A stretch of DNA of 64,000 nt, from assembly GCA_008632985.1 (NCBI GenBank), contig QPGO01000065.1, forward strand, positions 124,001-188,000, written 5' to 3'. Of the stretch, positions 1 to 56,297 are shown piece after piece (position 1 is the stretch's first letter; the number at the start of each line of letters is the position of its first letter). The notes under the pieces are model-generated. The model searched no databases. It saw only the letters and a list, made by a program, of their open reading frames with translations, and was not told the origin of the DNA. This DNA comes from Psammoneis japonica (taxonomy: Eukaryota). A program made the position numbers and the translations under genes.

Positions 1-37
1 TTCACTGTTCCGGCTGGGGGGAGGTCCTTCTGGCCAG

Positions 38-1660: not shown

Positions 1661-1774
1661 TTTGGGACGACCACAAGCCCTTGGTGTCTTTAGACTCCCG
1701 GAGAGCAGACTTCCATCTCCCTGCTCTCTGGTTCGATTTTTGGGGTGGCCACCACCCAGGATTCTCATCGGGGG

Positions 1775-2223: not shown

Positions 2224-2483
2224 TCCTCGCACCCAAGTTTAGATGGAGACGGACTGACTAGACTCAACCTCGCCCGATGACTGTGACCTCTCGCCTGATC
2301 CATTTCGGAAGTTGGGGACTTCCGGCTCAAGATCACCCAGTCAGTTTTCCGACTGTGACCGGTCTAACTTCGGTTTTCTCTTCTCCACTTTTCCAGCTTG
2401 ATTGGAGCAGGAACCCTGATCAACGTGACTGGATCACACAAGCCCAGAAAAGCAGTGTTCTTTTTACCCACCCACCACACCCA

Positions 2484-24570: not shown

Positions 24571-26256
24571 AGGAGCGCTCCGTCTTCAAATTGCACTATT
24601 CATCGGTAGCGAAGGCCGGTAATTTTGTCGTTGCGTTATGTGTGTTGTCTTGGCGGTGTTGATTCTGCTGTCTGTATAATTAGCGGCGCTCATTGCTTCC
24701 GGCATTTTACTACCAACACTGGCCACAAGAGACTCCAGACTCTCACCATGATTTGTTATGGCGTCGAATCGCTACTTTTACTCGTTTCTTGTTGCTTCGC
24801 TTTCGCTTTTTCATTGCGATCCTGTCTCTTAATGAGCTGGATGCTTGTTTCAGACTGGACGCCGCACTTATACAGACGCATCAGTATTGAGGCTCGCAGC
24901 TTATCAAGTTCTTGAACACATGGACATCGACTTCGTTGACTATTGTTGAAAGAATGGAGGAATTATGGATTGACTTGTACGAGAGAGGCTAAGTTGAAAT
25001 CAGAGACGTGGGACTCATGCAAGCATGGTTGCAAGCTCTCGTCGAGAGTGGATACGAGTTTCCCTAAGTCACTCGCTCCCGGCATCCAAACATTGTCCTC
25101 ATGCGTGAGTTTAACTTTGCCAAAGGTTCCAAGAATGCACCATTTTGGGATCAGAAATGGCGGGAAGTCTTTCCAAACATCGTCATACGTTGTCCCTTTA
25201 GCGGTGAACAGATTGGTGATTTGCACTCCCCTTGTATACAGGCGATAGCAAGCAGCGCCAATGATCGTCGAACCGAATCGCTATGGGCTGGGCAATCAAA
25301 GACGTACTGCAAAAGACGATTCATCTGAACAATGACGAACTCGGAGGAAGTTAGCGACAAGACCCAAGCCAAAATCTATTTCCTGCAACGGATGAGAATT
25401 TTGCTCCACGAGGCACTCAAAGATGAGAACTACATGGATAACTGCTACGCTAATTCTGACAAGATTCGAAACATTTGGTGGCACCGATAGTATTCCACTT
25501 CGGGAAGAGGTTGTTGGGTTGTATCCGATTGGGGTGCAACGAAGGAACTGTGAAAAGCAAGGGAAAAGAATGTGTCAAGGAAGCATATGAGAGTATCATG
25601 GGGAACAAGGATTTGGAGAAAGCTTTTCTCAAGTGCTTCGAGAGTGACAACTCAATTACCACGGACGACAAGCTCAAAGTATACAAGCAGCTTATTTCGA
25701 AGACAGCTCAGGGCACACTGAATTAATCTCACGTATTGGGCAGTGCCCCTGACCCCACTTTCACCCCAGATTGTCAAAATGTGTAAAACACCCCTGTTTT
25801 GTAAAACGCCCTCTAGAGAGTAACGAACAAGCAGCGGCTTGGGTCGTCATGGTGCTTTCGACAGTCGAGTGAGTCGTCGAGCAGTTTTTGCTGTTTGCGC
25901 ATTCAAATCGCGCGCACTGCACAGTGAATGTTCACTTCCGGGTTCCTTCTGGTTTTGTTTCGACCTCAAACATGACCGACGACTGACCGACGAATGCTCG
26001 AAAAAGCCTGCTACGTAGGATCCTACGTAAGACATAGGGTAATGAGCCAAAATGTGTGTTTTACACGACGAAGCACGTGAAAGGCCCTTTGCGTGGTTTT
26101 GCCACAAAACTCAGGCTCTCAGCTCTCACAGCTTGTGCACTTCAATTTAAGTTTGCACTTGACAGATTGAAGGCTGACTTTCAGCAATCAGGTGTCAGGT
26201 TCTGCTGTGTCACACTGTGCCTGTGAGCAGCAGTGCCAAGAGGTTGTTTGGCAGCC

Positions 26257-26452
26257 TGACAGAATGCCGAAGGTCGACAGTGACAGAGGCATGAAAGACT
26301 CCCCAAAGTGCTAGGACTGTGATGACATGAGTGCTAGTAGAAGAGAAAGTGAGAGGCAGATCTCAGAGAGATCTGCTCGTGTCCACCCAAATGGTCCAGC
26401 CATCATCCGCGTCCAGTCTGTCCATCATGCGACAGGTGCAGATGGGCTGACA
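26257..26452 (-). repeat. 3' LTR
   Basis: Direct repeat of 33288-33483; preceded on the minus strand by polypurine tract AGGGGAGGG (26453-26461). Confidence 0.95.
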
Positions 26453-26658
26453 CCCTCCCCTGATCTGCAACATCTCAACATGTAGAACAGTGCAGATCAA
26501 ACCAAAGAACAGGGATGATGTGAGGGAAAAAAAAACAGAGAGACTAGACATGGGACACGACAAGTGTCCATGCCCAGTGCGCCATCAAACAAGGGGGCAG
26601 TGCGCAGCAGGGAGGCCACCGCGGAAAAAAAACATCAACAGCAGTGTCCCATCATGCG

Positions 26659-29600
26659 TCAAGTGTGGCGAGCGTGCAGCACCCAGCCAAGGGCCTTGGC
26701 AAGGTCATTGCTGGGGTTGACAATGCCTGGAGTGTGTCTTGTGACAATCTTGCCCGCTTCCTTCCATTCTTGAATCGCAAAAAACTGGATCTCAACATGA
26801 CGGGATCGCTCGGTCGGGATCGAGTGATTGATGATCTTGATTGCCGATTCGTTGTCAATGTATGACGGGGTTGGCGTCGTCTGAGGGAAGCCTGGGTCTT
26901 GTAGAACGTGACGAAGGCACAGGACATGCTTGGCAGCAGTTCCAGCAGCACAAAATTCAGCTTCTGTAGAGCTCGCAGCGGTCACCGATTGGGTCTTGCA
27001 CCGAAAAGATGTGGCAGCACCAGCTAACATGCAAGCACAGCCAGTCGTAGAACGACAGTTGCGGAGGTCATTGCCATGAGCAGCATCCAAGAAAGCAACG
27101 AGTTGATGGTCATGTTCCGGAAAAGGGAACGATGGTGAGGTCTGGTCCGGAGTGAGACGTTCGAAGGGGCAGGCAGGCAGTTTTGAGTCTCGGGTGGGCT
27201 TCTTGCAGTTCAATTCCCAATGCCCAGTGCGTCAAAGGCACTTGCACATGCCCTTGAGTGTGTCACAGTGAACCAAAGCAGGACAGGTAGAGAACTTGGA
27301 GAGAGCAGTGATGGCATGCCCAACATCCAGTCGACATGCAACGCACGCACACAACAATTCGCCAAGAAGAGTGCGGCAGCCAAAACCAGCAGCTTGTTGT
27401 AGCTCCGCATGCTCCGGGGTTCCTTCAGCTGGGCCAACAGTGTCGCACAGTTCGCGAACAGATTCAACAGGGAGTGGCACAGCCTTGCAGTCATCGTCGA
27501 GTTCCTCGTCCGTCGGTGTCAACCAACCATGCGAGGCACAAACCCGATCCACACAGCTGTGAACAGCAATGCCAATGGAGTCATCACATTGATGAACATC
27601 CACACCATTGAATTCTTCAATCATGCCAAGACACTTGAACGGCGGAGAGGTTTCCGATTCCAATTGGAGAGCTTTGCCAATCTTGTCGTAGATCTTGACC
27701 GCAATGGACTCTTCAGGACAAGCGAGAGAGAAATCATCAACCTGACAGAGAAGCAAGATCTTGTGTCCTTCAAAAGCAGCAGAGCAGACACATTTGTCGT
27801 GTGAGCAGTGTTGCGAAAAAGCAGGTTCACATCAGACAAAATGCCGTTGATGTGCGTCTCCCAGAGCACACCGGCTTCTGGGTGTCCTTGGAGTGCATGT
27901 TGCATCGGAAGTGCCACGGTCCTGTCCAAGTCAACACCAAATCGAGCCTTGCACCAGGTCGCGTGTGCCTCATCTACAGCAACACACACGGGATGTGACG
28001 GTCGTGGAGAGTGTGCACAGGCATCACGAGCATCCCCACCAAAGACAGGATGGCTCATGGTCACAGCAAGGGCAAAAAACATGCGTTGGATGGGTTGCTC
28101 GACACAGGATGAGTGCGTCGAGTAGAGACGATGTAGCATCAACGCAGCACGGGGAGATCCATCGCAGCACTGTCAAGAGCGCCGTGTGCCATCACACTTG
28201 AGGTCATGTTGCCAATGCGGACGAAGTGCGATGGCATCCTTGGGTCGTTTAATCGGTGCACCAAACATCCCCAACTCATGGAACTGGTCAAGTTGTTTAA
28301 ATTCACCTGTGTGCCATTCGGGCCACGTGTCCAACTTCTTGAGATGATGGCGGGTGAAAGCACCTGAGGCTTGTTCCTCTGGAGTGACAGCGTGGGATGA
28401 TGTGGCACAGACATTGACTGTGCCATTGTCATGATCAACAAAGAACGGCGGATTGACATCATCGTCATCCGCATCGGAGAAATCAACATCGGGGTGGCGG
28501 ATGGCAGCAATGGCACGCATGTCGGCGTTGGTGATTTCCGGAACATGCTCATCATCAGGATCAGGAGTCGGTGCATGCACGTTGTGTTCCATCAGAGCAT
28601 GTTGTAGAGCTTGAGAGTCCAGGTGACGTTCCGGCGCGAATTCAATTTCAAAATGAGTCTTGCCAGAATCACAGACTTGCTGAAAACGGTTGACAGCCTC
28701 CTCTGCCATGAAGATGGGATGATCATCAATCGATGCGACATGCGCACCCTTGATCTTGTTGCGGGTGGCCTTCAAAGAAGAGAAAAGACGCGCAGCAGGA
28801 GAAGCACGCTTGACATCAGAGACAAATGCTCGCAGACAGAGATCGTCCGTAGCCAAGGAAAGTCCAAACGTGGGATCAGCAAATGTTCCCTTCATCGTGT
28901 GCTCAATGGTCTTGGCAAAAGGATTCCCATGAAAGTGAAATTCATCCATTGTGGTTTCTTCAGTCTCGGCAGGTAAAGCCTTGCCATCTTGAGTGCGTTC
29001 CAAGTGAACCACATTCGGCGGAAGAGAGTCGTGGGGAAGATCATTCATGCCCTCATCACAGCGAATGTGCTTGGCAAGCTTGACACGCGATGTCTCAGTG
29101 TCACGCCAAAGAATGTTCTTGGCAGTGTCCGGAAGACAGCCTGAGAATGTGCCCTTGCAAGAGACAGACCAAAATTTCGCTGGGCGGTGATTCGACGCAC
29201 GCACCCACACTCGACAACCAAATGCACGAAAGTTCTTGAAATCATCCTTCCGACCAGCAGCGAGAGCAATCGGAGCAGCAGGTTGTCCGCGGGATGGTGT
29301 GGCATTGTTGATTCAAATGAAATGATGAAAAGCATGGGGCCAGAATTTTGTGGGCAAATCGGCACCGATTGGCATCGCCCAGATGGCGTTGGCAACAGAC
29401 AAATGACTGAGTTCCACTGGGCCACTCTGATTTGAAGCATCTTTTCCCGTAGGACGAATTGCACAATGGAAGTCATCCTCGAAGAGTCGCCGAACTTCTG
29501 GGTTTTGATGCAATTCACCTCCTTGATCCACAAATGCACATTTGTCTGGACATTTTGGCAAGTGCTCTTCCAGAAAGTGGCGAAGCCAATTCAAAGGGGT

Positions 29601-32600
29601 TGCCTTGGAGACACGAGTCGCGCCATGGAGACACTTCATTTTATGATCGTAAACAGCAATCCAACAAGTCTCGCCATTCAATCCAACATGGTCCTTGGTG
29701 CACTCTGAGTTCTTGGAGCGCAGGCCAGAGAAGGAAAAGTCAATCGTAAGGCCTTGGTGTGGCTGGGTGGCAGCAAGAGTGGTGTTCGGACCGGCAGGTT
29801 CCTTCGTCTGCTTTGCTCGTGTGCATGTGGGACAAGTGTTGAGAGGAGAAGTTCCGTGGGCAAACTTGGGGACGCCATCAACATGTTCATGGGCATGACA
29901 AAGGCAGTGATCACTTGGATGACCAAGGCGCTGATGCCATAAAAGACGTTCCGTGTCGGCCTTGAGGGACTGGACAGGAATGTTCTTCTCAGCATGCTTC
30001 TCAAAAGGAATGTCTTGACAGACATGGGGGATCAACTTGCGTTCATGACGAAGAGCGTCATGTTGGTGGGTGCGACAAGTCTCAATCACACACGTAGCGA
30101 CCTCTTCACACTCATCGGCAAAAGCAGGATCACTGGTCTTGAGGCGCTCAACAGATGCATCCAGTGCGTCGTTAGATTCCGGGAGAATGAGAGGGTGAGC
30201 AAAACATTTTCCATTGATCAATTTCCCATGAACAATGACATCCTGACTCTTGCGCAATCGGTGTCGTGCAACAAACTTGCAGGTGCCAAGATCATGGAAC
30301 TTGAGAATGCAGTCGACATTGCAATCTGTGCGACAAGCACCATTTTGACGGAGCAGGAGTCGCTCATCGACCAACGTAGATTGGATCTGCAGGTGGTGGC
30401 ATGCACGAACCTCAACATGTCCGGCAGAGTTCTCTGCAAGAATCCGCAGGCATCCGAAACCAACTGGAGTGGCTTGGTGGCCAAGAGCCGGGTTGACGGC
30501 AAGGGGACAGGGATGGGATGGGGTGAAGTCTTGGCAGCAATGGAGGAGGTCACGGTCGCCTGCACATGCAATGTCAGCACCAGCATCCAATTGAGCACAA
30601 CGTTCATTCGGAGCAAAGTTTGCGCCATTGACAGAACAAGTGGAGCGCAGCAGTTCCGGCTCAGGTGAGTGACTCGCCTGGTGTGGATCGATTGGAGTGA
30701 CACGAACAGAATTGATGGCAGCAAAACCGTCTTCAACAGCCATGTCATCACAGGTGAGATCAACACATTCCTCAAAAACCGGTGTTTCTGGGTCTTCCCT
30801 CCCCTGTTCCAAAGGATCCGGAGCATGAGCAGCATCGACGGAGGCTTCTGGAGGAGCAGGGTCATCATTGGGTGACGTGTCAGTGTCAAATGACATCTTC
30901 GTGGAGGTGGAAGGGGTGGCATCCATGTCAATCTGTGAGGAAAGAGGCATTTCAGCGGCAGATGACGAGACGGTTAGTCCCTCTTTCAAGGTCATCCCGC
31001 TGAGATTAGTCTTGTCTCGGTGAGGAGACAACGGGCAGTGTCGGAGATCCGAAACTGGCTGCGACGGCCCAATTGAAAATCCGAGGGCAGAGCACTAGAC
31101 GGAGGTGGATTTTCAGGGTTGTCATGATGGGGTGGGAGTAAACCTTGGGGGGTCCTTGGAACTCGGAAGCACGCACAGCTGCTTCCGATTTTAAAAATTG
31201 ACAAAAACGGATGTGGAATCCCTTGATGCACGGGTCATTGTTCAGGATGGGACAGTCATCAAATGAATGCTCTCCGGAGCAGACAAGACATGGTTTCTTG
31301 GAGGCTTCATGCGGAGTGACTTTCAGTTCATAGACTGAAGCCGAGCACACATGGTGAAGAATTCGATCTTCGTCCGTTGATGGGATCTTGAGTTTGTGTG
31401 ATTCGTCGCAAAGAGCATCAAAGGTGTCCGGATGTGGGGATTCTGCACCAGGATCTTCAGTGGCAGAGTCATCAACTGGTGCATGAATGGGTGTCTCAGG
31501 GATCTGGAGAGAGTTGACATTGGCAGGTGTGTGTCACGCAGGAGCATCTGCTTGATTCCATGTACGGCATGGATTGGATTGCGTCACACGAGTGGCAAGG
31601 GATGGACTGTCCGGTTGGCGGAGGAAATCAGAGAGAGTCTCGACAATCTGTGCATCCGTGTGCTTCTTCTGCATGGCTGGAGACTTCCGTTCATCTCTGG
31701 CAGCACGTGACAAGAACTTGGAGCACTCAGTGTTCTTGATGAAGATGGTCATCTCCCATGGATCATTCAACGTAGAGTCTGTGTCAAAAATGCAGGCACG
31801 CAGCTGCAGGAAATCATTGAAGATCATGTGGCAGTCCGTCAATGATCGATTGCCTTGGACAGGATGGGAATCAACAAGTCCAGCAGCATCGTGATCAAAG
31901 GCAGGATGATTCTCGTGGATGATCTGCTTGAGAGCCTTGCATCCGTTGCCATGGCATGATGCAACAATCCGATGATGCTTGCTGTTCTTGGGGAACACAT
32001 CTGACTTGGATGGGATCTTGTGGAGAGAGCTCTGGGCTTCCTTGCAGTGGACGTACATGCGCTGGGGCAAGTCGTCATCTTTGCCGTTTCCAATCTTGAA
32101 GCCTTTCTCACCACCGTGGTCCTTGGCAAAACACCACAATGGATGTGTGTGGCACCCTGAATCAAAGGCATGACGTTGGAAATTTTGGTGCCATGCACGC
32201 ATCCCAGGAGGAGAGTCGTCATGACATGCAGGAGGTTCCCTGAACAGCATTTTCTGATCAGGAGTCGAGCTCATGATGAAAAGGGCACCATTGTCAAGGA
32301 TGATGCGATCGGATGCATCAATGCAGTGACGGAATCCATGGTCGCAAGGGACGAGAGAGCTCTGGAGAGCAACTTCACTGTCTTCTTTGCGGTCTCAGCA
32401 TTCACGAACATCTTTTGGCAGCGTGTTCGGATTGAAGAGGTGTTTCGATGTAACGGAGGATGTGTCACTTCCAGATGACTTGGCAGAAGCTGTAGAAGGT
32501 GGAGCATGGCTCGACGCGTGTGCATTGAGTGCAGTGACCAAGTCAGTCACGGTCAATGCAGCAGGTCCTGCAGTTTTCTGAGAAGAAGACGGAGGCTGCT

Positions 32601-32985
32601 GTTTCTTCTGGCAGGGTGCAAGAGAGAACTCGTTCCAATTGCGATAGTTCCACATCATGTCCGGATCAACATGCATGTGTTGGGTAGACATGGCAATGAA
32701 CAGAGATTGTCCACTGTTCTGAAGATTCGTCTTGATCATCTTTGATGAGATCGGAGTCGTCAGGCGGACTGGACGAGGCCGTTGAGGGTCAAGAAGTCTG
32801 AACGGGGCTTGATCCATAATCGTCTTGATTGATTCTATGTCCGTGGGATCAGCTGTGTAAGGTGGAAACGCTTCGTGGATGAAGCAATCACGAAGCATGT
32901 CCGCGAAATCTTTCTTGGGTTGTGTGTGCTCTGGGTCGTCAAAAAAAAGGGTCCAGATCAGTTGTGGAGTCCGCACAAATCGCAT
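26659..32985 (-). pseudogene. Fragmented gag-pol polyprotein
   Basis: Zn knuckle CLVCSGEHSFDDC; protease QLDAGA; 'LWHQRLGHPS...CPTC' and integrase core (IDFS, VDQGGE, GPVE); RT 'ALQGHPE', 'QVDDF'; RNase H 'DAAHGND..RSTTG..SSTEAE..DNESA..RSRHVEI'. Multiple stops and frameshifts. Confidence 0.93.
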
Positions 32986-33277
32986 TCAGGCAATTGTGGA
33001 GATGTGGCGTCGTTGTGTGTGCCTCGAATTCGCAGCGGATCTCTGTGACGGACGACAGAGCGGGCTTTGTGGTGTCGGAAGACGCCATGGTTTTAGTGGG
33101 TGGAGCCATTTTTGGTCATGCACACGCAGAAATCTGGCATGTTTCTACGACCGTGAAAAATGCCAGGAAAGCGAGATAAAAAGTTGTCTGATCAGACGAT
33201 GAGGCTCGCTCAATCAGCTCACAAAACAAATGAATCAAAATAGAAAGCTTGGCGCAGAGGTCTGTGGCACAGCGCAA

Positions 33278-33287
33278 GGCCACAACC
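33278..33287 (-). promoter_or_regulatory. Primer-binding site of the Copia element
   Basis: GGTTGTGGCC directly follows the 5' LTR. It resembles the GGTTATG(G/A)GCC tRNA-iMet half-molecule PBS of copia-type elements, with TA read as TG. Confidence 0.65.
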
Positions 33288-33483
33288 TGACAGAATGCCG
33301 AAGGTCGACAGTGACAGAGGTGTGAAAGACTCCCCAAAGCACTGGGACTGTGACAACACAAGTGCCAGCAGAAGAGAAAGTGAGAGGCAGATCTCAGAGA
33401 GATCTGCTCGTCTGTCCAAATGGTCCAGCCATCATCCGCATCCAGTCTGCCTGTCATGCGAGACAGGTGCAGACAGGCTGACA
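33288..33483 (-). repeat. 5' LTR
   Basis: Direct repeat of 26257-26452, followed by the TSD. Confidence 0.95.
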
Positions 33484-34654
33484 CAGCCAAGCAGCCAGCT
33501 CTCTGTGAAAAATGGTTGCAAAAGGAAAGGATCTGCCTGCTGCAACACAAGTGACAAGCAATCAAGAGTGCATTTTCCTGTGGTTTGGTGTCAAAGAAAA
33601 TGTGCTTGTTTGTGGTGCGCTGTGCTGGCAAGACCAGCTGCGAGGCACAGCCCAGCCAGCCATGCAGCCACCGCCAGCACAGTGGGTGCTGGCCTCCTCT
33701 CATGATGTTGGCATTGGGCCACATCATGCAGCTGTGCCACTGCAGTCAAATGGCATTTCTGCCAGCTCTGCATGAAAAAATGATTGCAAAAGGAAAGAAG
33801 CCATCTGCGGTGCAAGAGACAAGCAGCCGCCAAGCTCCCCATGGTGGTGGGCTGCTTGAAGTGCTGCAGCAGCTGTGCTCTGTGCTGGCCATCCAACAGA
33901 GATGAGTGGACCGCAATGTTGGCTGCAAGATGAAAGGACTGTGTTGGTCACAACTGGCACCAAACAAGTGCGGGAAATTTTCCTTTCATCCAAGGAAATT
34001 TGGGAGCTGCTGAGAGAGGAGCCCCCCATGACCCAAAACCCCGCTCATGCTCACATCTTGATTTCCCCCTCATTGGCTTGTTGAATGAAGAAAACAAAGA
34101 GGCTTTCCTCTTTTGTTTTGTTGCACAATGTGCGCCAGATTTGCCACACCAATTTGAGCTTTTGTGGGCTTGCTTGGAGCAGATCACACTTTTGAAGAGA
34201 CCATGGAAGCACATCTTTTTGTCCTTGAGAAAGTGCCTCCCAATGGTGTCTGCCTCACTCATTGAGTGCATTGCACAAAAAGATGTGTTTTGGCAGCCAC
34301 AGGCTCTGTGCAAATCAACTTCTAGATGAAAGGTTCATGACGGTTGCAACCACGCATTGAATCACCAATTGTTTTTTCCTTTTCTTGTTTTCTCATGTTT
34401 CCTTGTCTAGGAAATTCAGCGCCAAATGAGGAATTCCCTGTGATCGAAAACCTGCAATGATGCGGTGATTGGCATGTTGACAATGATTCCGTTTGTGGCA
34501 TCGCTGTCAAATTTGCACTGGAAAACCATGTGGGTTTCTACTTGTCGCTGTCAAAATGGAATTGTGTCATTGTCAAATTCTGCACAAACCCTGGTGCATT
34601 TCCCACACAGTTCCCAAAGAGCCACCTGCGCAGCTGGACGATTGCCTGTTTTAC

Positions 34655-35822
34655 GTGACACTGCAAATTGCCAAACACTTGTCACTCTTTGCACACAAAG
34701 TGCGTTCGATCGCTCTGAAGAGGAAATTTTTCATTCATTGTTCGTTTGCACCAGGCCACGTGGAATTCTGCAGAAACTCCCTCTGACGTTTCACCCGCGC
34801 TTCTCTCAAAACAACACGCGACAATGCGGGGAACACCGTCGGCAGTTTGCGACAACTTTCCCTCTCTAACAAAAGAACAGAAATGACAGCATTTGTGCAC
34901 AGGAATTGTTGACACCTTCAGCACAATGTTGACAGCAAGGAGTTGCAGGATGCAGGATGCAGGATGCTGCTGTGTGAGAACAGCACTGCAAAACAAGACA
35001 ACAATGTTTGGCATGGCAAACACAGCTGTGCCGAAAATCAAACGCCCATCAATGACAAGCACTCCATTTGGTCATTCAACAATGCCACCTTCATTCCTAG
35101 ATCTGTCACCTGCAAAGCCAAATTGAAATTTCTGCTGTCTTCTTCGCATTGTGCCATTGAGAGCCGACAGCGAGTCACTTGCTCTGCTGGTGCAGAGAAT
35201 GTTTTCATGTTTGCACTGCATGCAACACATTCAATGTCTCCATCAGTGGCGCGCAACTCTTCCTTCCAGCATGTCCATCACGCACACTTTTGCTCCATTT
35301 CTCTCTTGCGCGAGCCATTTGTGGCCCTCTCATCACCTCGAATGTCCACACTGCAACACCAAATGTTCAACATTCAAACAACATTCACCAGCTTTGGTTG
35401 ATGAAAGATCAATTGAGCCTCAACGCCACTGAACAAAGGCAAACACCATGCGACATGCCAGCTGGGATGTCAAAACAGTGCAGACAGAGAACAAATGTGA
35501 GCGAAAGCACCAGCGGAAACAATGCAAGCAACAAAGCTCTCTTTTGTTGCCATTGAGAGCGCACTGAAACACGGGAGAGTTGTGAAAATTGGCAGAGTCG
35601 ATGACGATGGGCACCGCCATTGTCGGACACATCTCCTCGTGCTTCACCCCGTGTTGTGGTTGGTGGTTGGAGAGAGGAGTCGGAAAGCAGCAAGACTTTG
35701 CGCTGTAATTTTCTACGTGGCCTGGCACAAGCGAGCCAATGAAAGGAAATTTTCCTCTTCAGGGTGATCGAAGGCGCTTCACATGCGAAAAGTGACGAGT
35801 GTTTGGCAATTTGTGGTGACAC
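34655..35822. mobile_element. ~1.17-kb segment bounded by ~120-bp imperfect inverted repeats (possible non-autonomous DNA transposon)
   Basis: 34655-34773 is the reverse complement of 35703-35822; no transposase or clear TSD recognised. Confidence 0.45.
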
Positions 35823-37039
35823 ATGATTTTACGATTCCCCCCCTCCCCCCTTCACCGCGAAGGTTGCGCTCAACACGTGAGATTAATTTAGCATGCCCTG
35901 TCACGCAAGATTCAGGGCTGTTGCAGACAAGTGCAAAGAGGACAAGACAGGGCATCATGCAAAAGGCCAGTCAGACGTTGCACTCCAACAGAATCTCAGA
36001 GCTCAAGTCAAAAAGTCAAGCGTCAAGGTCACAAGCAACTCACAAACATGCTCTGTTTGATCACCCCCAGTTGGTTTCTCTAAAACGCTCTCTGCTCCAG
36101 ATTGCCCTGTCCACTTGGAGGGGTTTGGGTTGCTTGCAGCGAAGACTTCCACTTGAAAAGGCACTCAAGCCCACAAGAAAGTGGGGCCCCATGCCGATCA
36201 TGTGCATGCATCAGAGGCAGCAATGTGGTGGTTTCCACTTTCTTTTGTAAAATTTTGAGTGTGCATTGTTAAAATTGTCAACAAGCAGAACTTGAAAAAA
36301 TGCCGGCAAAAGTGCTTGACAAAATGAAGCTGTTTTTTGCATTTTATCTGATGTCTCATTGACTTTTCTTGCACAAGCTTCAATCAAATGCATGCAATGT
36401 TTAATTTAACTGGGGTTAAAATCTGTTTTTTGTTGTGCATGGTTTGGTTTCCTTTTGATCGTAATCAATTTGAACTTGGTTTTAACTTTGTCCTCCTCAC
36501 TCACGTGTGTGTCTTTGCACGTGTGCAGTCTGCAGCACTTCACGCACGCGCACATGACCCACCTTCATTTTTCTTCACTTTTGCACAGCCCGTTGGTCTA
36601 CGGCATTTTCAGCATGTGTTTTGCACGTGCAATTTTCTGCACATTTCACAACAGTGCACCCTCTCCCCAAAGTTTGAAAAACGAGAGCGCGTGCTGTTGT
36701 GACTCACGTGGATCCTGCGTGTGGTCGCAAATCTGCAAATCGACAACCGGCCATGGCGGTGAAAGACTTTGCCCCATTGGCCGATGACAGCAGCTCAATG
36801 CATGGTGACACCTGCCATCCTTCTGGTTGGTCAAGATGGGGTTTTATTTGGGTGCAGCTTGAATTTTGTGATCGCGAGTGTGCTGTCACGAATCTGCCGC
36901 ATCCAGAATGCTGAGCTGCTGGCGTGTTGTTGTGTGTTGTGTGCACGCACGTCACAAACTTGCTTTTCTGCAGCGTTGTCACAATCGCGCATGTCAGAGT
37001 TTTTCATCCAGAATCATCGTGAGTTGCCATGAATTGCAC

Positions 37040-38150
37040 TGTCCAAACAAGGCATGCACAAAAAGAGGTTCGTTGGTTTTTGACACATTTGCCAACAACA
37101 CATCCGTCTTCTCCAATTTCTGTGTCCAGACCCAGAAAGACTGCAGGCGGTGCTTGTTCCTGCAGCTCTCAGAATCTCACATGTGAAAAGTTCTTTGCCA
37201 TGTGTGACACTCTTCAAAAAAGGCATGCACAAAAAGAGCTTCATTTGTTTTTGATGTGTTCACTTGCGTTGCATCCATCTTCTCCAATTTCTGTGTCCAG
37301 ATCCAGAAAGACTGCAGAGGTGGAGAGTGGGGAGGCAACCCATTGGAGGTTGCCTGAGTTGTTGGGCTCATTTTTAAAGGCTTCCCAAGTCTCTCCGCTG
37401 TTTGTGGTCAAGAGCAGCAGGGGGGGTCGACTGCAACAACCGCGGCAGCTGCCAATTCCATGTCGATGGGTCGGGAACTGGCAGCAGAAGCTCCCGAATC
37501 GGCGGCGGCGGTGGATGCACCTGCAAGTCTACGTTGAGGTTTCAATTGGTTGCTGTTGTTGTCCCGTGCACTCTCACAAAGTGTTTTGCATTTCTTTGCA
37601 CTGAACAAGGTGGATCAGAGCAATGTTGCTTCACATGGTCCTGAATCGGCTTCGAGGGGTCGGGAACCGGCGGCAGAAGCGACCAAATTGGCCACGGCAG
37701 ATGCACCAGTGAGTCCATGTTGCGGTTTCAATTGGTTGCTGTTGTTGTCCTGTGCACTCTCACAAAGCATTTTGCACTTCTTTGCAATGAACAAGGTGGA
37801 TCAGAGCAGCGTCACTTCACCTGGTCCGGAATCAGCAGCGCTGGATGCACAGGCAAGTCCATGCATTGACGTCTCCATTGGCTGTGGTTGGCTCATCTTT
37901 GTCATGCTCTCACAACGTTTTCTGCACCGTTCGACAATGAATGAGGTGGCTGCCAGTGCTGGCAGTGGCTCTTCAAGAAAGAGAACTGCAGCAGCTGCTA
38001 CAAACTCGCCTGCTCCAGAATCGGCGGCACCAGATGCACCGGCAAGTCCATGTTGCTGTTCCTGTTGGTGGTGTCAGTTCATCCACATTGTGCTCTCACA
38101 ACGCATTCTGCACTTTTTTGGCAATGAACAAGGTGGCTGCAAGCAGTGGC
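37040..38150 (+). repeat. Tandemly duplicated exon-intron units of a degenerate gene
   Basis: Four related intron-like units start at 37523, 37709, 37853 and 38042, most ending ...tgaacaag|gtgg. Two other related units start at ~37050 and ~37220. Confidence 0.65.
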
Positions 38151-40982
38151 ACTTAAAGAAAGTGAGCTGCAACTGCTGCAGACTCTGGGGTGTTGTCTCC
38201 GTCGGCGTCATTTAACTTGAATGCAAACAACAAAATAGAATGTTCATGGCACAATGCAAATGATTTTAATTTACAGGTTTTGCAGGGACAGAGGGTGGGC
38301 ACTCTCATGGGGAAAACGTGCCCCTGTTTCATGGTGAAACATTTTTTCTCATGGGGAGGGGGGGTCTGATCCCACAGCATGAAAATGTCAATCTGTCACA
38401 GTTGACATGTCATTGCCAGCTGCACAACTGATGAGGTTTGAAACCATAAAAAAATCATCTGTGAAAGGAACAAAAATCACAATGAAAAGATGTGTGATGA
38501 TCACTGCATTGCACGCTCTGATGTGGACACCGACGGGTTCCAGCCCCAGGCGGGACTCCGTGTGACATTGGGCCCGTAGAATTCTACGTGCGAGCTCCGC
38601 AGCACGAGAATTTAATCGACGGATGTGTTTGTCTTCAACATCAAATAAACGGCCAAGTTTGTGGTGCAATTGCGCCTCTTGCCACTCGATGTTTTTGCAA
38701 ATGTGCCTGCCCTGCGCGATTCTCAAGACATTGTAGAATCGCGCTGCAACAAAAAATGTCAAAAGCTGTTGGACGGATCGCTCAATGAGTGCACTGCACC
38801 ACAAAATGATGCTCTACAAAATTTTTTTCACAACAGTCTCGCACAATTCTGCACACGCGACATGCGGTGCAATCCAAAAAACCATCGATGCCACAGTTCA
38901 GCAGTGCGAGGTCCCGTCACCTCTAGAGAGCTGGGATGCGTCCACCGCAAATGATGGCCTGTCCGTCAGGCAGTGTGTCTCGAGGTGCGCCGTGGAGGTG
39001 TGACATGCAGTTCCTGCAACTGACTGACACCTCGTCACCACAAAGCATGGTCTTCTGACAACAACCCCAGATTGGCAAGGTGCAAGTCGTTCCCAAAAAA
39101 ATGATCCAAAATTGTTCAGGTCATGTCTCAGACCTCCTTTGCAGATTGGAAGGCAACAAGAAACACAAAATGATGCACACATGGTGGTGCATCGTCTTGA
39201 GGTGCATCTTGGGGTGCCGGCACTCCGTGATGTGCATCTCAGTTCCTGCAACTGACAGACACCTCATGCCTCGTCACCACAAATCATGGGCCCAATGTCA
39301 ACAACCCCAGATTGACAAGGTGCAGGTTGTCCCTGTCCTCCTCTGCAGATCCGAGGGCCACAAGAATCAAAAATGAGACACCACCTCTCTCTGGAGATGG
39401 GAAAAAGACAGAGACGGAGAAGGGCAGGCCCAAAGTGTGGACAGATGGCTGAAGTGAGGAGTTGTCAGCAAGGGCACCGGCGGGAACATTCGTCAATTGA
39501 GACACAACAAAAATGTCGTTGCATGGCTGCAACATCTGCGACCACACGAATCCACGACCACCCAAACCACCACGCAAGAACAAATCCATCACCCTTGCAT
39601 TCCCTGCAATGCCTCAATGACATTGTCCCTCTTGCGACATGTGCAATGCCGTGTCCAGAACATTCTACCCAATGCCACAATGATGCGCACATTGTTTTTT
39701 GTCTGCATCCCAATGGGTGCCGGTGCAACTGATCCAACACATTTTTTGGGTGCGTGCTCTTTTTCTCAGAATGTTCTTTGTCAAGTGCAAGGCATGCACC
39801 CAATCCAACCACGATGATGTGCCCTGAATGACACATCATTGTTTTGTCACTGAACAATGTCGCCCCATCATTGCTGTTCCCCATTTTGTTCTTGCAGGCA
39901 GAGGACATGACTCTTCTTTTTTGTCATGTGCAAAATCACAGCAATGGATTCAACCAATGATGCCGCAGCAGTGGATGTGGTGTGCCGCATGGAGGTTGTC
40001 TCAGCCATGTTGGGTTTGCTTGTTGTCACAATGGCCCTGGTCTTGCTGGCATTCTTGGTGGTGACAGCACATTCACCGGTGGCCGTCCTGGGCTGTGGTG
40101 GTGGCCGTGGTGGTGGGCATGGTTGTGGCCACAGTGGTGGCCCTCCTTTTGCATCTCATGGTGGAACATCTCGTGATGGCAGCGATGGTGATGGCGATCG
40201 GGTTGGCGGCAACAGCCTTGAAACTGCTCACCGTCCCGCGATCAGCCCTCCCGATGCATGTCATGGCGGACATTCGGATGAGAGCAGCAGGGGTGATGGT
40301 GGTCGCCCAGGCCGTGGTTTTGGCCATGGTGGTGGCCCTCCTTTTGCATCTCATGGAGATGCTCCATCCACACAACCACTTCTATTGAATCGTTCAATGA
40401 ATGTATGTAACCTTTATGTACTTCGGTCATAGAGGCATTCGCAACATTCGATTGGGATGGAGGCAACAACAGCGAAAATGCATGAGAAGCAGTGGATGAG
40501 GAGAAAAAGCATCTAACGGAAAAAATCGAGCGGCAATCGCTATACCAGATGCTTCCAATAGGGTTTAAAAAGACTCTTCCGATGCGATTACCACTCGATT
40601 ATCAACATCAACGCCGCCGTAAACGATTTGCTCACCATGGTCGAAGTCTTTTTTTCTCGTGCAAAAAGGACGAGGATTGTGGGGTGGCGGACGAACGTGC
40701 AAAAAATAGTTTTAGTCGAATTATTCAGCTATAACGAATTCTTTTTTGTACCAATGATGTACGTACCTTTCTACACTAATATAACGTATAAGAGTATTGA
40801 CATAATAATAAGAAATCCTTCTAGATCTTTTTGAATATTTTTATAGTGAATGTAGATATTATTGACGACGAGAAATGACACCGACGAGAGCGGCCGGGAG
40901 CAACTTGAAACTCAACACAATGACGAGAACATTGAAATAGAAACAGCTCCGCTCGCAATCTTCACGTTGTACAACCAACACA

Positions 40983-47149: not shown

Positions 47150-48500
47150 TTGGCTGATGAGGTTGTTTTACTGCCCGTTTCGCGAAAGACTTGCTCATGG
47201 CTGTGTCGTCGTAGTCACCACTTCTATGATGGGCTTTGCCATTCGTCTGAACTAAGGATGGCACATTGCAACTAGATGCGTCTCAGTCTTTCATAAATTC
47301 TAGCAGGTCTATTTTCTTTTAGCCTCTATGGTGTTTGTAACAATTTCTAAATAACAACACCCATATGATGCACGTTGTCGTGTCGCCCATGTTGTAACCA
47401 CTGGTTGTTGTCCAGTGCATCAAACGTTAGAGCAACCGCCCCACCCGCCGGCATCACATGACGTGAAGCCACCGTTTATAGCGTTGACGACGCCTTCGTC
47501 AACTTGCGGTGGCGCATCATTTGTGACCCCAAAGCTCAAAGGAACTGGCGGGGGCTGATTAGCCGCAGCATCAGGGGGCACCACAGTCCCACCAAAAGGA
47601 TCAGCCGGGGGCTGGTTGGCCACAGCAGGAGGGGCTGCCACAGCACCACAAAAAGGAGCAGGCAAGGGCTGATTGGCCACAGGATAGGAGGGGGCACCAC
47701 AGAGCCACGAAAAGGAGCAGGCAGGGGCTGATTAGCCACAGGAGGTGCCACCATGTTCCCACCAAGAAAAGGAGCAGGCAGGGGCTGATTGGCCACAGGA
47801 GGGGATTGGTCACAGGAAGGGCCGCTGCAGTCCCGCCAGATCCAGTCAAAGCATTCAGCACACCAAAGCTGGTCCAGAGTTGTTGGACTGGTTTGTGGTG
47901 GTGCCAAAAGGCTGAGTTGCCACACAGCTGGTTGATGGGCCATCGGCACAACAACACTTTGTGGTGGAGCAAGGCTGCATTGTGGAGAGGAGAACACAGC
48001 ACAAAACATGCAAAACAGTCAGAGACATTGACAGAAAATGTCAACAAAGCAACAAGAAGTCACAGAAATGACCAACTCATGACACAGAAGATGACATTGT
48101 TTTGATGGCATCCACCACCATCTTGCTTGTCATCTCAACAATGTTGTCCAATGATGCTGACAATGCTGGCAAGCTTGGTGGTGTGAGCACTTGAGGCATG
48201 CCAAGATGGCCTGGCGCTGACCTGTTGTTGCCTGAGGCTGCCCATTGCCAGCAGGGCTTGGAAAACACATCTGTGGCAAGTGGCAGTTGCTGAAGCAGTG
48301 GCCTCTGCCTCATTTTTCCTTCTCTCTGAGTTCACACTGCACTTGCATTGCCCCGTGCTTTTCCAGGGCAATCTGTCCAGCCTTTTTTCTTTCATTTGGA
48401 GTCTTCTTCTTTTCCCATGGCTTGCTCTGTGGCTTGGAATCCTTGGCCATTGTCTGTTGCACAACTGTGAGTCTTGGTTTTTCTGTTGTTTGTTGGTGCT
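47150..48500 (-). pseudogene. Hypermutated copy of the 3213-4486 gene and its 3' flank
   Basis: 'VVQQTMAKDSKPQSKPWEKKKT' vs 'VVRQTMAKDSKPQSKPRRKKKT'; PAPF repeats retained; frameshifted. Confidence 0.8.
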
Positions 48501-49409
48501 TGCTTTCCATCATTGCTTTTGAGTTTTTGGTGAATCATTGTTGTCATGATGTTGAACAATTTCTTTAAATTTCTGTTTGTCAATTGTTTCTTTCTGAATC
48601 TTTGCACACAGTGGAATTCCATGACCCTTGGCAGCAATGTTCAAATTTGAAACATGACTGAAGACAACAGATTTGTGCAGAGTGACATCACTTCCCAAAC
48701 CTCATTGGCCCAACTCAAAAGTTCCCAGTTTAGCATGAAAAACAGCATGTTGCACTTTGATGTGTCTCAACAATGGCAAAAATTGTTGGGTGAATGCAGC
48801 TTTTGTGGGGGGTCTTTTTCTGTTGTTGTCATGGAGAGGTTGGTGCATTGGTTTGGCTGGTTTTCTGTTTTGACATGCTGTGGTGCAACCGCAGTGTGCC
48901 TTGACTCATGACTCAATTATTTCACAGTGCACATGACATCTGAACAGTCCACAATGTTGCCAAGATGTGCATTTTCCTTGAGCAATGAAGCAGTCATTGA
49001 CGGTGCACTCAGTTGTTCCACAGTGTGTTGTTGTTTTTTAGAGTTGGTGTCCAGTGGAGTTGCAACGGCGTTGGATTGATCTGCCACTGCATCGGGGGAC
49101 GGGGGGTTGTGTTGACCACAGGCACTGTGTGCATGGGCAGCTCTCTGCACTGTTGAGTGGTGCATCCATTGTGTGGTGAGAATCTTTGAGGCAATTGGGG
49201 TGTTTAAGGCAACTGGCCTCCTGCCAAACAAGAGGACAAGCAAAGGCTCAAGCACTTTGGATGATGTCAAAAAGGATCAAATGCCAAAGAGTGGCAAACT
49301 TGGCAAGTGCTGCATTTGTGCAGTCATTTGCTGCCTCTCTTGTCATGCAGGTGCAGCGGTGGTTGCTGGTTGGCCAACAACTCAAGACCAAAAGCAGTGA
49401 ACAGAGAGT

Positions 49410-49411
<2 letters not shown>

Positions 49412-49440
<29 letters not shown>

Positions 49441-52400: not shown

Positions 52401-52496
52401 TTGAAGCTGTCATGGTTTGTGCTGGTGGCTCAGAAGTCAAATGTGCATGTGGTCAAACCAACTGTGGTGTGTGCTGGTCTCAAAGCAGGCTTCAAA
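49412..52496 (+). mobile_element. Penelope-like retroelement with direct pseudo-LTR repeats (49412-50045 and ~51844-52496), each starting in a (GA)n tract
   Basis: ~640-bp direct repeats flank a degenerate PLE-type RT. Confidence 0.75.
50424..51800 (+). pseudogene. Penelope-type reverse transcriptase, frameshifted
   Basis: 'FCLTLKVHK..SRPIIS..GS', 'SHFKSS', 'LFTSNAESCCLNIP', 'YKRFVDNIVGIW', 'NFMDLTI', 'TTLYEK..NLHSCVPPHSAHP' and 'NLGNLLS' follow the PLE RT/thumb motif order. Confidence 0.85.
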
Positions 52497-55400: not shown

Positions 55401-56297
55401 ACCAGAGCTCTTTTCCAGAGCTGCAAGGTGCAGCAACATCAAAGAGCTGGCTGTGTGTGGCAGGAGTCTCCTGGCTCTCTGGCACAACATGGTGGGCAAA
55501 TTCTCACACCCTTGTTGTCCTGTTGGGGGGGCAGATGTGGCCCAGAAATGTGCACAGATCAAGCATCCTTGCCACACCACAATGTTGGCAAAACAGGAAA
55601 ACTTTGTGACTGAAGATGAGCGGAGTGAATGGCACCTGAAGAGCAGCTGCTTGGCTCAGCCTGGTGGGCCATCCCCATGGAGTGCTCAGATGGAAATCAG
55701 AATTTGCTCAAGACACCAGCATCATGCCACAATGATTCTGTGAGTTGAGAGTTGAGCACCATCTGGCTGAAAAAGAGTGAACACTTTTTTCGGACGTCCC
55801 GCCCCCACAGACCTCACAACCCATGTGCTGTCGGGGTTGCGGTTGTTACGTCCGCGTTGAGTCTGCATGACGGTGAGCCGTGAAGGGACGGGTCAGACAC
55901 AGGTGTGATCTTCACTACCGCACCTGTCTACCGGCATTCTGTCTCTGATCTTTCCGCAATGCCGAAGGGGGGTGGTTCTTGGAGCAATCAGGACGTTCGC
56001 CGTGGCGTGTGGTTGAGGTTACCAAGAGATTGCAGCGCGGCATGTTGGGTTTAGGCTGTCTAGAGCAGAAGTCGACTTAACCTACAAACAAGCGTGTTTC
56101 ATTTACAAAAAACATTGAAAATAGTTCAGCAGTTATTGCCAATACAGCAATTCAAGAGAATTTTTAATTCGAAAAAACAATGTATTGGTAGTCTACGACT
56201 TAACCGCATGGCTGGCTCTCTGAATAGGGAGAGTCGCTGGCGGCTAGTGCAACTGATAATCTCTTCGTGTCTTAGTTTTCTAGGTTCATCTTCTCCC

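Follow-up and report, generated by a model that had tools for sequence, protein, structure and literature searches.

The window analysed here, a stretch of 64,000 nucleotides from a diatom nuclear genome, holds a dead 7.2-kb Ty1/copia-type LTR retrotransposon on the minus strand (26257-33483). Both of its 196-bp LTRs are on the minus strand: the 3′ LTR, which lies on the left of the plus strand (26257..26452), has TG..CA ends and the three surviving TA dinucleotides of the pair, and the 5′ LTR, on the right (33288..33483), has zero TA remaining. The element is bordered by a target-site duplication, CAGCC, whose left copy (26252..26256) (read directly) is identical to the right one (33484..33488). 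Adjoining the 3′ LTR upstream is a polypurine tract, AGGGGAGGG on the coding strand (26453..26461, minus strand), recognised by position and composition only. A degenerate gag-pol (26659..32985, minus strand) runs through three frame segments (32985-31006, 31094-27621 and 27831-26659), carries seven TGA and one TAA in-frame stops and two frameshifts, and has Tyr at just 0.4% of its codons. Pfam recognised gag_pre-integrs and SH3_retrovirus, both in the 31094-27621 frame, and the integrase domains stand upstream of the RT/RNase H part (27831-26659), which is the order of a copia Pol. The element also aligns colinearly with a profile built from 28 copia Pol proteins, through positions 14-882 and then 875-1256. 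RVT_2 (PF07727), present in the nearest relatives (50-59% identity; including Nitzschia inconspicua and Cylindrotheca fusiformis entries), gave no Pfam match in the element itself, where this domain is split by a frameshift and heavily converted.

Contigs of run X1 supply the empty site, joining 26207/26240 directly to 33484/33490 with a single copy of CAGCC. As these contigs skip the element, the flanking repeat must also exist in copies without the insertion. Together, the TG..CA ends, the 5-bp duplication, the polypurine tract and the empty-site contigs establish that both LTRs belong to one insertion. Judged by summed contig depth (~3000 and ~6200, against 40-67 for single contigs), the family amounts to ~50 internal and ~100 LTR equivalents, and by the same measure the flanks of the element are multi-copy. 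A scan for the LTR core pattern gave 0 matches in the metagenome contigs and the two LTRs only within the window, and X1 was the one sequencing run found to carry sampled words of 26000-33800, no RNA run being listed as doing so; runs X2 and X3 contributed no contig pieces.

Alignment of the two LTRs with MAFFT yielded 194 aligned bases, 20 of which differ, all by transition (20/20) and none by transversion. Seven places, spread over 26290..26444 of the left LTR with partners within 33321-33475 of the right, are reciprocal swaps in which one LTR reads TG and the other CA (left/right: 26290-91/33321-22, 26309-10/33340-41, 26323-24/33354-55, 26328-29/33359-60, 26384-85/33413-14, 26423-24/33452-53 and 26443-44/33474-75). 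Six of the seven are unambiguous, the exception being 26384-85, which depends on the placement of the adjacent indel. The left LTR carries four TG and three CA at these sites. It also keeps TA at three further sites, 26312-13 (TG in the right LTR) and 26335-36 and 26338-39 (both CA in the right LTR). The remaining differences are one CG/CA site (26410-11), two other transitions (26386 and 26421) and two 2-bp indels (GT at 26379-80, left LTR only; GA at 33460-61, right LTR only). The counts of swaps, TA sites, CG/CA site, other transitions and indels match those that the original prediction had made by eye, and the five CpGs it described as intact in both LTRs read likewise in the alignment; TA common to both amounts to zero. 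Chance does not account for the swap pattern: across 200,000 trials that scattered 20 transitions randomly over the LTR, the maximum was five swaps (frequency 1e-5) and 67% of the trials gave zero.

The swaps very probably go back to ancestral TA dinucleotides that were hit after integration, as judged from several sequence comparisons. A very unlikely alternative is that they descend from ancestral CpG, the methylated cytosines having been deaminated on one strand in one LTR and on the complementary strand in the other. CpG decay is real at this locus, as the CG/CA site in the LTR pair attests, and since it is also active, it may account for 0 to 1 of the swaps. To weigh both origins, we fitted a Poisson mixture to the class counts of the LTR pair, in a model that assumes one hit probability per class. 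The fit gave p about 0.91 for the TA process and q about 0.09 for the CpG process. With five intact CpGs and one single hit, only 0.025 CpG-derived discordant double hits are expected out of the seven observed; forcing 0.5 of them costs 1.7 log-likelihood units, and deriving all seven from CpG costs 8.9. A CpG origin also leaves unaccounted for the three sites with TA facing TG or CA and the lack of any TA shared by the LTRs. Strongly bimodal CpG methylation would weaken a likelihood model with one probability per class. The value p = 0.91 implies ~17 ancestral TA in 196 bp, or ~9% of dinucleotides; this is a high figure, well above the TA density in the unmutated parts of the window.

The coding region offers an independent view of the two dinucleotides. 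From 150 listed copia homologues we retained 28 (1000-1800 aa, Tyr at least 2.5%) as a Pol profile and used columns with at least 20 homologue residues. At the 28 Tyr-majority columns the element has Tyr once, Cys (TGY) at 14, His (CAY) at seven and other residues at six, so that former Tyr codons became TGY or CAY at 21 of 28 columns, split 14:7. The 32 Arg-majority columns, in contrast, retain Arg (CGN) at 20, the others being Cys (3), TGA (3), Trp (1), His (1) and other states (4). Control columns are largely retained (His 16/18, Trp 9/10, Phe 19/21). TAY Tyr codons of the Pol frame are therefore almost wholly lost to TGY and CAY, and CGN Arg codons mostly kept. The three TGA, three Cys and one Trp among the Arg columns are what a CpG ancestry would produce, but the element keeps Arg at 20/32 and Tyr at just 1/28, which speaks against a CpG origin of the swaps.

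TA depletion extends well beyond the element, in three domains where observed/expected TA is 0.06-0.13, against 0.63-0.65 outside, and where TA-free runs reach up to 1094 bp. The first (26046..40380) contains the copia element and the multi-copy repeat that hosts the insertion; over 26046-40000 the ratios are TA 0.10, CG 0.62, TG 1.55 and CA 1.69. Its edges are sharp: TA-dense sequence runs as far as 26040 and resumes at 40383. The second (47595..55950) has TA 0.06, CG 0.22, TG 1.77 and CA 1.73; it is nearly stripped of CpG, a point in favour of CpG ancestry. CpG decay, present in the copia element, is dominant in this second domain. The third (1..2300; TA 0.13, CG 0.70) is truncated by the window start. 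Pfam searches of 89 of the 105 open frames (120 aa or longer) that lie outside the element gave no match in any frame of a TA-poor domain; the families found were those of host genes only (MATH-BTB, glycosyltransferase, Hid1/Dymeclin and LRR).

The left edge of the second domain cuts through a paralogous segment, and the direction of change can be read there. When 47145-48659 is compared with its paralogue at 3019-4744, TA is kept at 13/24 sites and CG at 19/27 before ~47595, against 0/29 and 2/62 after 47595, where TG or CA stands in place of TA at 23 sites and of CG at 45. At 12 sites where both outside copies have TA, the inside copy shows CA at seven, TG at two, TA at one and other states at two. 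In the states listed by the pairwise and the three-way paralogue comparisons, TA never goes to CG. A further pair, 1775-2226 and 2484-2922, behaves similarly: the inner copy has TG or CA at 8/9 sites where only one copy keeps TA, and CpG single hits split 4 to 3. Paralogues inside and outside TA-poor DNA show, as far as sequence comparison can, that the direction is from TA to TG or CA. Duplicates that were left unconverted are also present in the window, namely a 3.4-kb pair (5842-9328 and 43565-47014) and the arms 3019-4744 and 11381-12113.

Copies elsewhere in the genome complicate a purely private history of hits. Among the X1 contigs, other copies differ from the window copy at 1225 variable places, 990 of them by transition. 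Only one of the 40 places listed, 26312, lies in an LTR: 26 other contigs (4548/4604 of the depth) read CA there, against TA in the left LTR and TG in the right. A simple star-like TA model predicts a TG/CA mixture among the other copies at 26312, and, since no such mixture is seen, subfamily structure is needed. Among the places listed, two coding sites, 28195-96 and 31399-400, are whole TG/CA swaps relative to all other contigs, which indicates that conversions were also inherited in source lineages and are not only private hits. At two of the stops of the window copy, 28173-75 and 31534-36, the other copies have CGA, as expected from CpG ancestry of these positions.

We also examined a related copia family represented by 35 metagenome loci, of which 27 were kept after removing eight near-identical duplicates. 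Per copy, loss ranges from 16 to 100% for TA and from 28 to 64% for CpG, with no correlation between them (Spearman 0.16, p 0.43). The TA-type sites have TG and CA in a ratio of 423:370. In the nine closest copy pairs, both-hit TA-type sites comprise 195 concordant and 46 discordant cases, against 194 and 7 for CG-type sites. Nonetheless, among 76 sites of this family that carry both TG and CA, the third state is CG, not TA, in 24, and CpG-derived swaps therefore do occur in such elements. The LTR pair of one locus, L033, is not TA-depleted and is uninformative on swaps, and Pfam gave no matches on frames flanking the metagenome copies of this family. The preference for TA over CG as ancestor of the swaps in the original prediction is supported indirectly by the Tyr and Arg codons, the LTR model, the paralogues and this family.

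The same prediction placed the mutations after integration, on both strands of chromosomal DNA, and this agrees with the presence of TG and CA outcomes in each LTR of an element with one target duplication. Changes made before integration, by A-to-I RNA editing or by deamination of single-stranded cDNA during reverse transcription, are scarcely credible. Such footprints are known in animal retroelements, according to the portion of PMC4866542 available, and an A-to-G change with a 5′ T recalls the preference of ADAR for certain neighbouring bases, which is set out in the accessible part of bioRxiv 10.64898/2026.01.13.699255. Editing of one strand, however, cannot yield two LTRs of a single insertion that differ and that each bear TG and CA. 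As both strands were hit within each LTR, and later than the single insertion, one-strand RNA or cDNA editing is ruled out. Depletion, moreover, also covers the flanking non-copia repeat and ends at edges that are not those of the element, and one member of a paralogue pair is converted over only part of its length. The reciprocal LTR differences, the converted flanking repeats and the domain edge inside a paralogue all point to a process that acts on integrated chromosomal DNA.

Post-integration hits need not have occurred in this very copy, since the LTR differences could have been imported by ectopic gene conversion or recombination with copies of other TA outcomes. A family of ~50 internal and ~100 LTR equivalents, whose copies differ mostly by transitions, would provide donors. 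We consider this quite unlikely: the differences are dispersed along the LTR (26290-26444) instead of forming one tract, the matching target duplication and the empty sites oppose an inter-element recombinant, and the donors would still need chromosomal TA mutation, so that only the place of the hits shifts. An artefact of assembly or base calling at chemically modified TA, the true DNA still being TA, has hardly any probability in our view. Some long-read platforms do miscall modified motifs systematically. Against this stand the 42% of sampled 31-letter words of 26000-33800 found in run X1 and the 603 X1 contig pieces that match at 99% or more, although X1 may be the source data in both cases. 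The signature is also present in metagenome contigs of other assemblies and, from what is accessible of bioRxiv 10.64898/2026.01.13.699255, in Illumina-sequenced lines of Bigelowiella natans. The conversions are, furthermore, visible as Tyr to Cys or His changes against unrelated homologues.

Mutation after integration bears directly on LTR dating, which had been expected to overestimate the age of the element. Indeed, raw K2P between the LTRs is 0.115, about 11-fold above a background of about 0.010 computed from the two differences outside the TA and CpG classes. By rough arithmetic, the excess of TA hits over background is ~several hundred-fold (p = 0.91, or ~2.4 hits per site, against 2 background differences in 194 bp, shared between the two LTRs).

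The element sits inside a 14-kb chromosomal domain in which, on our reading, TpA has been turned, near saturation, into TpG or CpA. Each conversion would replace the A:T pair at the A of a TpA by G:C, in a single transition whose outcome is TG when the top strand is hit and CA when the bottom strand is. A converted site, being no longer TpA, should be immune to a second hit, so that CG would never be made and TG and CA would act as sinks. The LTRs, identical at insertion, would then have been hit independently of each other, and the ancestral TA would now appear as seven swaps, three TA facing TG or CA, concordant pairs, which cannot be seen but should be about as numerous, and zero shared TA. 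A second, slower process in the same domains, presumably 5-methylcytosine deamination, converts CpG to TpG or CpA and is the source of the CG/CA site and of several in-frame TGA stops. At the level of sequence, our comparisons show that the signature exists, which way the change runs, that both strands are hit, that the hits came after integration and that they are confined to sharply bounded domains. The likeliest agent, to which we give an even chance, would be a DNA adenine deaminase acting at TpA and guided to chromatin that is silenced or foreign, of the kind proposed for B. natans; modification of thymine or misrepair is an unlikely alternative.

Other processes were considered and rejected. 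GC-biased gene conversion would strike sites other than TpA as well and would leave CpG in place. In a dead element there is no credible case for selection against TA, and an original element composition poor in TA is contradicted by the Tyr-codon and paralogue tests. Fungal RIP was rejected for its wrong direction, TpA being removed here and not made, and for the unconverted duplicates in the same window.

These data provide sequence evidence, independent of experiment, for TpA hypermutation after integration and on both strands in a diatom. Diatoms are far from B. natans, the sole organism in which the process has been shown, which points to a wider distribution, and, some of them being transformable, they are candidate organisms in which to look for the enzyme. 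The process extends to LTR retrotransposons and to entire domains, with edges that do not fall at repeat boundaries, and this constrains how targets are chosen. Conversion of Tyr to Cys or His has been so thorough that the reverse transcriptase is no longer recognised by Pfam. With this and the inflated age, elements of this kind will be missed or misdated when repeats and genes are annotated by ordinary means. Cross-tabulation of intact, single-hit and discordant sites in LTR pairs makes a simple genome-wide assay of TA-driven versus CpG-driven decay. A broader and more tentative reading, which we hold possible yet somewhat doubtful, is that diatoms and chlorarachniophytes share an enzymatic genome defence, a mirror image of fungal RIP, exerted by a predicted DNA adenine deaminase. 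This deaminase would be recruited to silenced chromatin domains and convert TpA to TpG or CpA on both strands, in a process separate from CpG methylation decay. Its activity would be turned on at individual loci and extend as far as the domain borders instead of following sequence homology. If true, the SAR supergroup would possess an ancient immune module, and the dating and annotation of transposons in algal genomes would carry a large, unrecognised bias.

Full-text literature searches, in which few subscription journals were covered, brought up nothing on TA-directed hypermutation in diatoms; nor did searching the available text of the diatom CoDi paper (PMC2806351) by term. Among known systems, the decay of CpG in methylated transposable elements similarly yields TG and CA, on both strands and after integration. 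The process described here differs in starting from TA, and CpG decay is much slower in the element (q about 0.09 against p about 0.91). APOBEC and ADAR footprints, as the accessible part of PMC4866542 presents them, are likewise clusters of deaminase-type transitions in LTR elements. Such footprints date from before integration, affect one strand and are either common to the LTRs or graded along the element, whereas here the LTRs differ reciprocally and flanks that are not retroelements are also affected. With fungal RIP, in the portion of PMC7296669 available, our process shares dinucleotide-specific transitions that take place after integration on both strands, degrade repeats and mobile DNA and blur their ages. 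RIP, on the other hand, makes TpA from CpA and TpG, and here TpA is destroyed to give CpA and TpG; duplication is moreover insufficient here, as repeated segments remain unconverted and a domain edge cuts through a paralogue.

The closest parallel is B. natans, a chlorarachniophyte in which TpA-specific local hypermutation was shown experimentally (Mettrop et al., 2026, bioRxiv 10.64898/2026.01.13.699255; our comparison refers to the accessible part of this preprint). In its mutation-accumulation lines, 230 of 231 mutations were A:T to G:C, all at TpA and in two integrated viral regions, and a DNA adenine deaminase was proposed, not shown, as the agent. Reverse-transcriptase and DDE Pfam families are enriched among its TpA-poor coding sequences. 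Searched by term, the accessible part of the same preprint contains none of CpG, LTR, retrotransposon and diatom. Both systems display near-exclusive A:T to G:C change at TpA, with TpG or CpA as the product depending on the strand, in chromosomal DNA and confined to particular integrated or foreign regions. Clusters poor in TpA and rich in CpA and TpG are also common to both, as is uneven activity, seen in some lines there and in some copies here. They differ in host, a rhizarian there and a diatom (a stramenopile) here, and in targets, which here are an LTR retrotransposon and neighbouring repeats. CpG decay runs alongside in the diatom, and depletion is deeper, with observed/expected TA of 0.06-0.13 against 0.45 in the NCLDV region of B. 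natans. Finally, the evidence here is historical, drawn from an LTR pair and paralogues, while that in B. natans is experimental.

The element, a dead Ty1/copia-type LTR retrotransposon of 7.2 kb (26257-33483), has the minus strand as its coding strand. Its two LTRs, also on the minus strand, are 196 bp long, the left or 3′ LTR at 26257-26452 and the right or 5′ LTR at 33288-33483; both start with TG and finish with CA. A 5-bp target duplication, CAGCC, is identical on both sides of the element (26252-56 and 33484-88), and the purine run AGGGGAGGG, read from the sequence on the coding strand, adjoins the 3′ LTR. In X1, the one public sequencing run found to contain this DNA, contigs aligned to the region around the element run from 26207 or 26240 straight into 33484 or 33490, so the flanking sequence also occurs in copies that lack the insertion. 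Both LTRs are the products of a single insertion event. The interior is a decayed gag-pol in three frame segments, with seven TGA stops, one TAA stop and two frameshifts. Two domains match Pfam, one the GAG pre-integrase domain and the other an SH3-like domain of integrase, and a full-length copia Pol protein profile is colinear with the element across the frameshift. Among named sequences, the RT/RNase H part is nearest to copia reverse transcriptases from Nitzschia inconspicua and Cylindrotheca fusiformis (50-59% identity). The TGA stops at 28173-28175 and 31534-31536 are CGA (Arg) in nearly all other family contigs, and hence are private CpG-decay stops that postdate the split of this copy. 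At 26600, 26732 and 29739 this copy shows A-to-G differences from nearly all of the family's other contigs; AAT there reads AGT in the window, and none of the three is at TpA.

Alignment of the LTRs (194 aligned bases) gives 20 differences, all of them transitions, and two 2-bp indels. Seven sites are reciprocal swaps, with TG in one LTR opposite CA in the other; at three sites TA in the left LTR faces TG (one site) or CA (two sites) in the right one, one is a CG/CA site and two are other transitions. These are the numbers that the original prediction had counted by eye. The two LTRs share five undamaged CpGs and have no TA in common. The swap at 26384-85 hinges on the placement of a neighbouring indel, and the remaining six are independent of indels. 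When 20 transitions were placed randomly in 200,000 trials, 67% of the trials yielded no swap and the maximum was five.

The LTR core pattern found no match in metagenome contigs. We modelled the LTR pair with the sites of each class hit independently in each LTR and with TG and CA equiprobable, a single hit probability being assumed for each class. The input was no intact and three single-hit sites for TA, and five intact and one single-hit site for CpG. Under a Poisson mixture for the seven swaps the maximum lies at p_TA 0.91 and q_CG 0.09, where 0.025 CpG-derived swaps are expected; the cost is 1.7 log-likelihood units if 0.5 such swaps are expected and 8.9 if seven are. The fitted model needs about 17 ancestral TA per 196-bp LTR, which is high.

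For a protein test, 28 full-length homologues (1000-1800 aa, Tyr at least 2.5%) from the 150 listed RT/RNase H homologues were made into a profile, to which the frames of the element were aligned. In the Tyr-majority columns (n=28) the element has Tyr once, Cys (TGY) 14 times, His (CAY) seven times and other residues six times. Arg encoded by CGN is retained in 20 of the 32 Arg-majority columns, where the products of CpG decay are Cys (3), TGA (3), Trp (1) and His (1). Control columns are retained for His (16/18), Trp (9/10) and Phe (19/21). The loss of Tyr columns against the retention of Arg columns indicates that, in the history of this copy, TA was converted near-completely and CpG modestly.

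Paralogues inside the window give the direction of the change. The segment 47145-48659 has paralogues at 3019-4744 and 11381-12113, both of which lie outside every TA-poor domain. Up to about 47595 it retains 13 of 24 TA and 19 of 27 CG of its partner; past 47595 it retains none of 29 TA and 2 of 62 CG, with TG/CA instead at 23 TA and 45 CG sites. Of 12 sites with TA in both outside copies, seven are CA in the inside copy, two TG, one TA and two in another state; of 29 sites with CG in both, 13 are TG in the inside copy, 11 CA and two CG. No change of TA to CG is found among the states listed in the pairwise and three-way comparisons. The signature is a change of TA to TG or CA, in that direction, and a site hit once is immune. 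In the pair 1775-2226/2484-2922, transitions account for 23 of 24 differences. Nine of its sites have TA in one copy only, and at eight of them TG/CA is in the copy deeper in the TA-poor domain; CpG single hits divide 4 to 3, and three swaps are seen against a cross-product expectation of about 1.3 TA-derived and 0.3 CpG-derived.

A related copia family was recovered from metagenome contigs. Tyr-poor homologues number four among the 86 new near-length ones tabulated (88 listed), and one of them, P0286, used as query, gave 35 loci, of which 27 were kept after removal of eight near-identical duplicates. In their 1.6-kb RT region, 66 sites are of the TA type (three or more copies with TA, none with CG) and 95 of the CG type. 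Loss per copy ranges from 16% to 100% for TA and from 28% to 64% for CpG, and the two are uncorrelated across copies (Spearman 0.16, p 0.43); over 5.5 kb of one locus, L008, observed/expected is 0.01 for TA and 0.69 for CG. TG and CA stand at 423:370 at TA-type sites. Of the 76 sites where TG and CA are each present in two or more copies, 39 have TA alone as their third state, 24 CG alone, 11 both and two neither. In the nine pairs of copies closest to each other (<3% background distance), both-hit sites are concordant in 195 cases and discordant in 46 for the TA type, and 194 and seven for the CG type. These counts show that TA and CG swaps both occur, that the TA kind prevails between close sequences, and that TA loss is copy-specific and separate from CpG decay. 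In the RT region of loci L001-L035, the hit share at TA-type sites, by the base that follows the A, is 0.37 for C, 0.33 for T, 0.20 for G and 0.15 for A; among these mutually related copies, a preference for a converted A preceding a pyrimidine is only a lead. Another locus, L010, has a 1827-residue open frame (8273-13753) adjoining its copia copy; this frame matches no Pfam family, and only four homologues were found (2100-2800 residues, 42-47% identity).

Protein columns and the Poisson mixture, as well as the window paralogues and the related family, favour TA as the probable ancestor of the swaps, as originally proposed. At 28195-96 and 31399-400 there is a whole swap between this copy and all contigs aligned there, so that some conversions were inherited along source lineages; the related family, with its 81% concordance, indicates likewise. 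At 26312, the only LTR site among the 40 variable places listed (of 1225), CA is the reading of 26 further contigs, which make up 4548 of the 4604 depth, and the window has TA and TG. Given this CA in other contigs, the inherited conversions, the high ancestral TA and a model with one probability per class, one of the seven swaps may derive from CpG.

The outcomes at the swap sites are four TG and three CA in the left LTR and the reverse in the right one, and the former Tyr codons of the element divide into 14 TGY and seven CAY: the process acts on both strands. Pre-integration editing of a single RNA or cDNA strand was rejected, as it can yield neither reciprocal LTR differences nor converted non-copia flanks. 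The claim that mutation followed integration, in duplex chromosomal DNA, is sound on these same two grounds.

The copia element is part of a larger converted domain, and its flanks are multi-copy by contig depth. Depth also puts the LTR copies and solo LTRs of the element's family at about 100. Observed/expected values of TA and CG are 0.13 and 0.70 in 1-2300, 0.10 and 0.62 in 26046-40000, and 0.06 and 0.22 in 47595-55950, against 0.63-0.65 and 0.94-1.00 in the three stretches between domains. Inside the domains TG and CA rise to 1.3-1.8, and the longest TA-free runs are of 1094 bp. The domains end abruptly: dense TA extends as far as 26040 and resumes at 40383, with the same picture around 47560 and 56020. 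Between the members of the 3.4-kb pair 5842-9328/43565-47014 there are 111 transitions and 94 transversions, and TA is still common to both at 115 sites. As this pair is still TA-bearing, repetition alone is insufficient to trigger conversion. Furthermore, one domain edge falls inside a paralogous segment. From the unconverted repeats and this edge we infer that targeting would be based on the chromosomal domain rather than on homology.

The pair is the longest block (5842-9328 versus 47014-43565) of a large inverted segmental duplication in several blocks, 3019-12472 versus 40737-48659, with 67-91% identity. Its arms flank the middle of the window, and the right arm enters a TA-poor domain at one end. 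The same 57-bp tandem array lies at 11541-11738 and 47538-47798, with 97% unit matches for the unconverted arm; the arm at the domain edge, whose units have had their CG and TA replaced by CA or TG, has 77%. An 84-bp tandem repeat at 3407-3790 (4.6 copies, 89% matches, G+C-rich) lies in an unconverted part of the window. In 47595-55950, TA and CpG are almost wholly lost (CG observed/expected 0.06-0.10 in the 1-kb bins of 48001-50000 and 52001-54000), unlike in the copia element, where CG is retained at about 0.7; the two decay processes have therefore progressed to different stages from one domain to another. The direct repeats 49413-50045 and 51851-52496 (633 bp, 95% identical) both lack TA and CG and differ by two TG/CA swaps, most other differences being due to the initial (GA)n run. 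Either conversion is mostly older than the duplication, or these are LTRs of a short element from a converted source.

Parts of normal composition carry host genes with long open frames: a MATH-BTB gene (21033-22439, plus strand), a group-1 glycosyltransferase gene (56301-57842, minus) starting about 350 bp from a domain edge, a Hid1/Dymeclin gene split once (57971-60526, plus) and a gene for an LRR protein with a plant-type N-terminal LRR cap (61550-63775, plus). The Hid1/Dymeclin frame at 58475-60526 (684 residues) is 74-75% identical to Nitzschia sequences and 65-71% to those of Pseudo-nitzschia, Epithemia, Fistulifera and Phaeodactylum. These identities place the window in the nuclear genome of a diatom, probably a raphid pennate.

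LTR divergence is 0.103 raw and 0.115 by K2P. By class, the 20 differences comprise 17 at TA, one at CpG and two remaining transitions, the last amounting to about 0.010. With two background transitions only, dating by raw LTR divergence overstates the age about 11 times, and the predicted overestimate by LTR dating is borne out (K2P 0.115 versus about 0.010 background, about 11-fold). The rate at TA sites is, roughly, several hundred-fold above background (p = 0.91 corresponds to about 2.4 hits at each TA site, against two background differences for 194 bp and two LTRs).

The agent would be a deamination of adenine at TpA sites of DNA, targeted to silenced chromatin, an explanation to which we give even chances; a route through thymine modification or misrepair instead would be improbable, though worth some weight. 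In fungi, RIP is triggered by duplication. It was rejected as the cause here, both for this trigger and because it runs in the direction opposite to the process in the window.

A closer parallel is the chlorarachniophyte Bigelowiella natans. According to a 2026 preprint (bioRxiv 10.64898/2026.01.13.699255), in two integrated viral regions of mutation-accumulation lines A:T to G:C changes made up 230 of 231 mutations, all AT-to-GC mutations being at TpA, at rates per site per generation of about 6e-7 versus 3.5e-10 elsewhere. The effect was confined to some lines, the genome holds 124 clusters of 1-kb windows that are TpA-poor and CpA+TpG-rich, and an ADAT2-like adenine deaminase is the proposed agent; the preprint mentions neither diatoms, LTRs, retrotransposons nor CpG. 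Searches of the full-text literature, and a term search in the CoDi paper on diatoms, found no report of TA-directed hypermutation in diatoms. TpA hypermutation in B. natans has the same signature as that in the diatom window. Our results extend this recently described kind to another, distant host lineage and to LTR retrotransposons as its targets, and they add near-saturation, a coexisting CpG decay and a post-integration timing recorded by the LTR pair.
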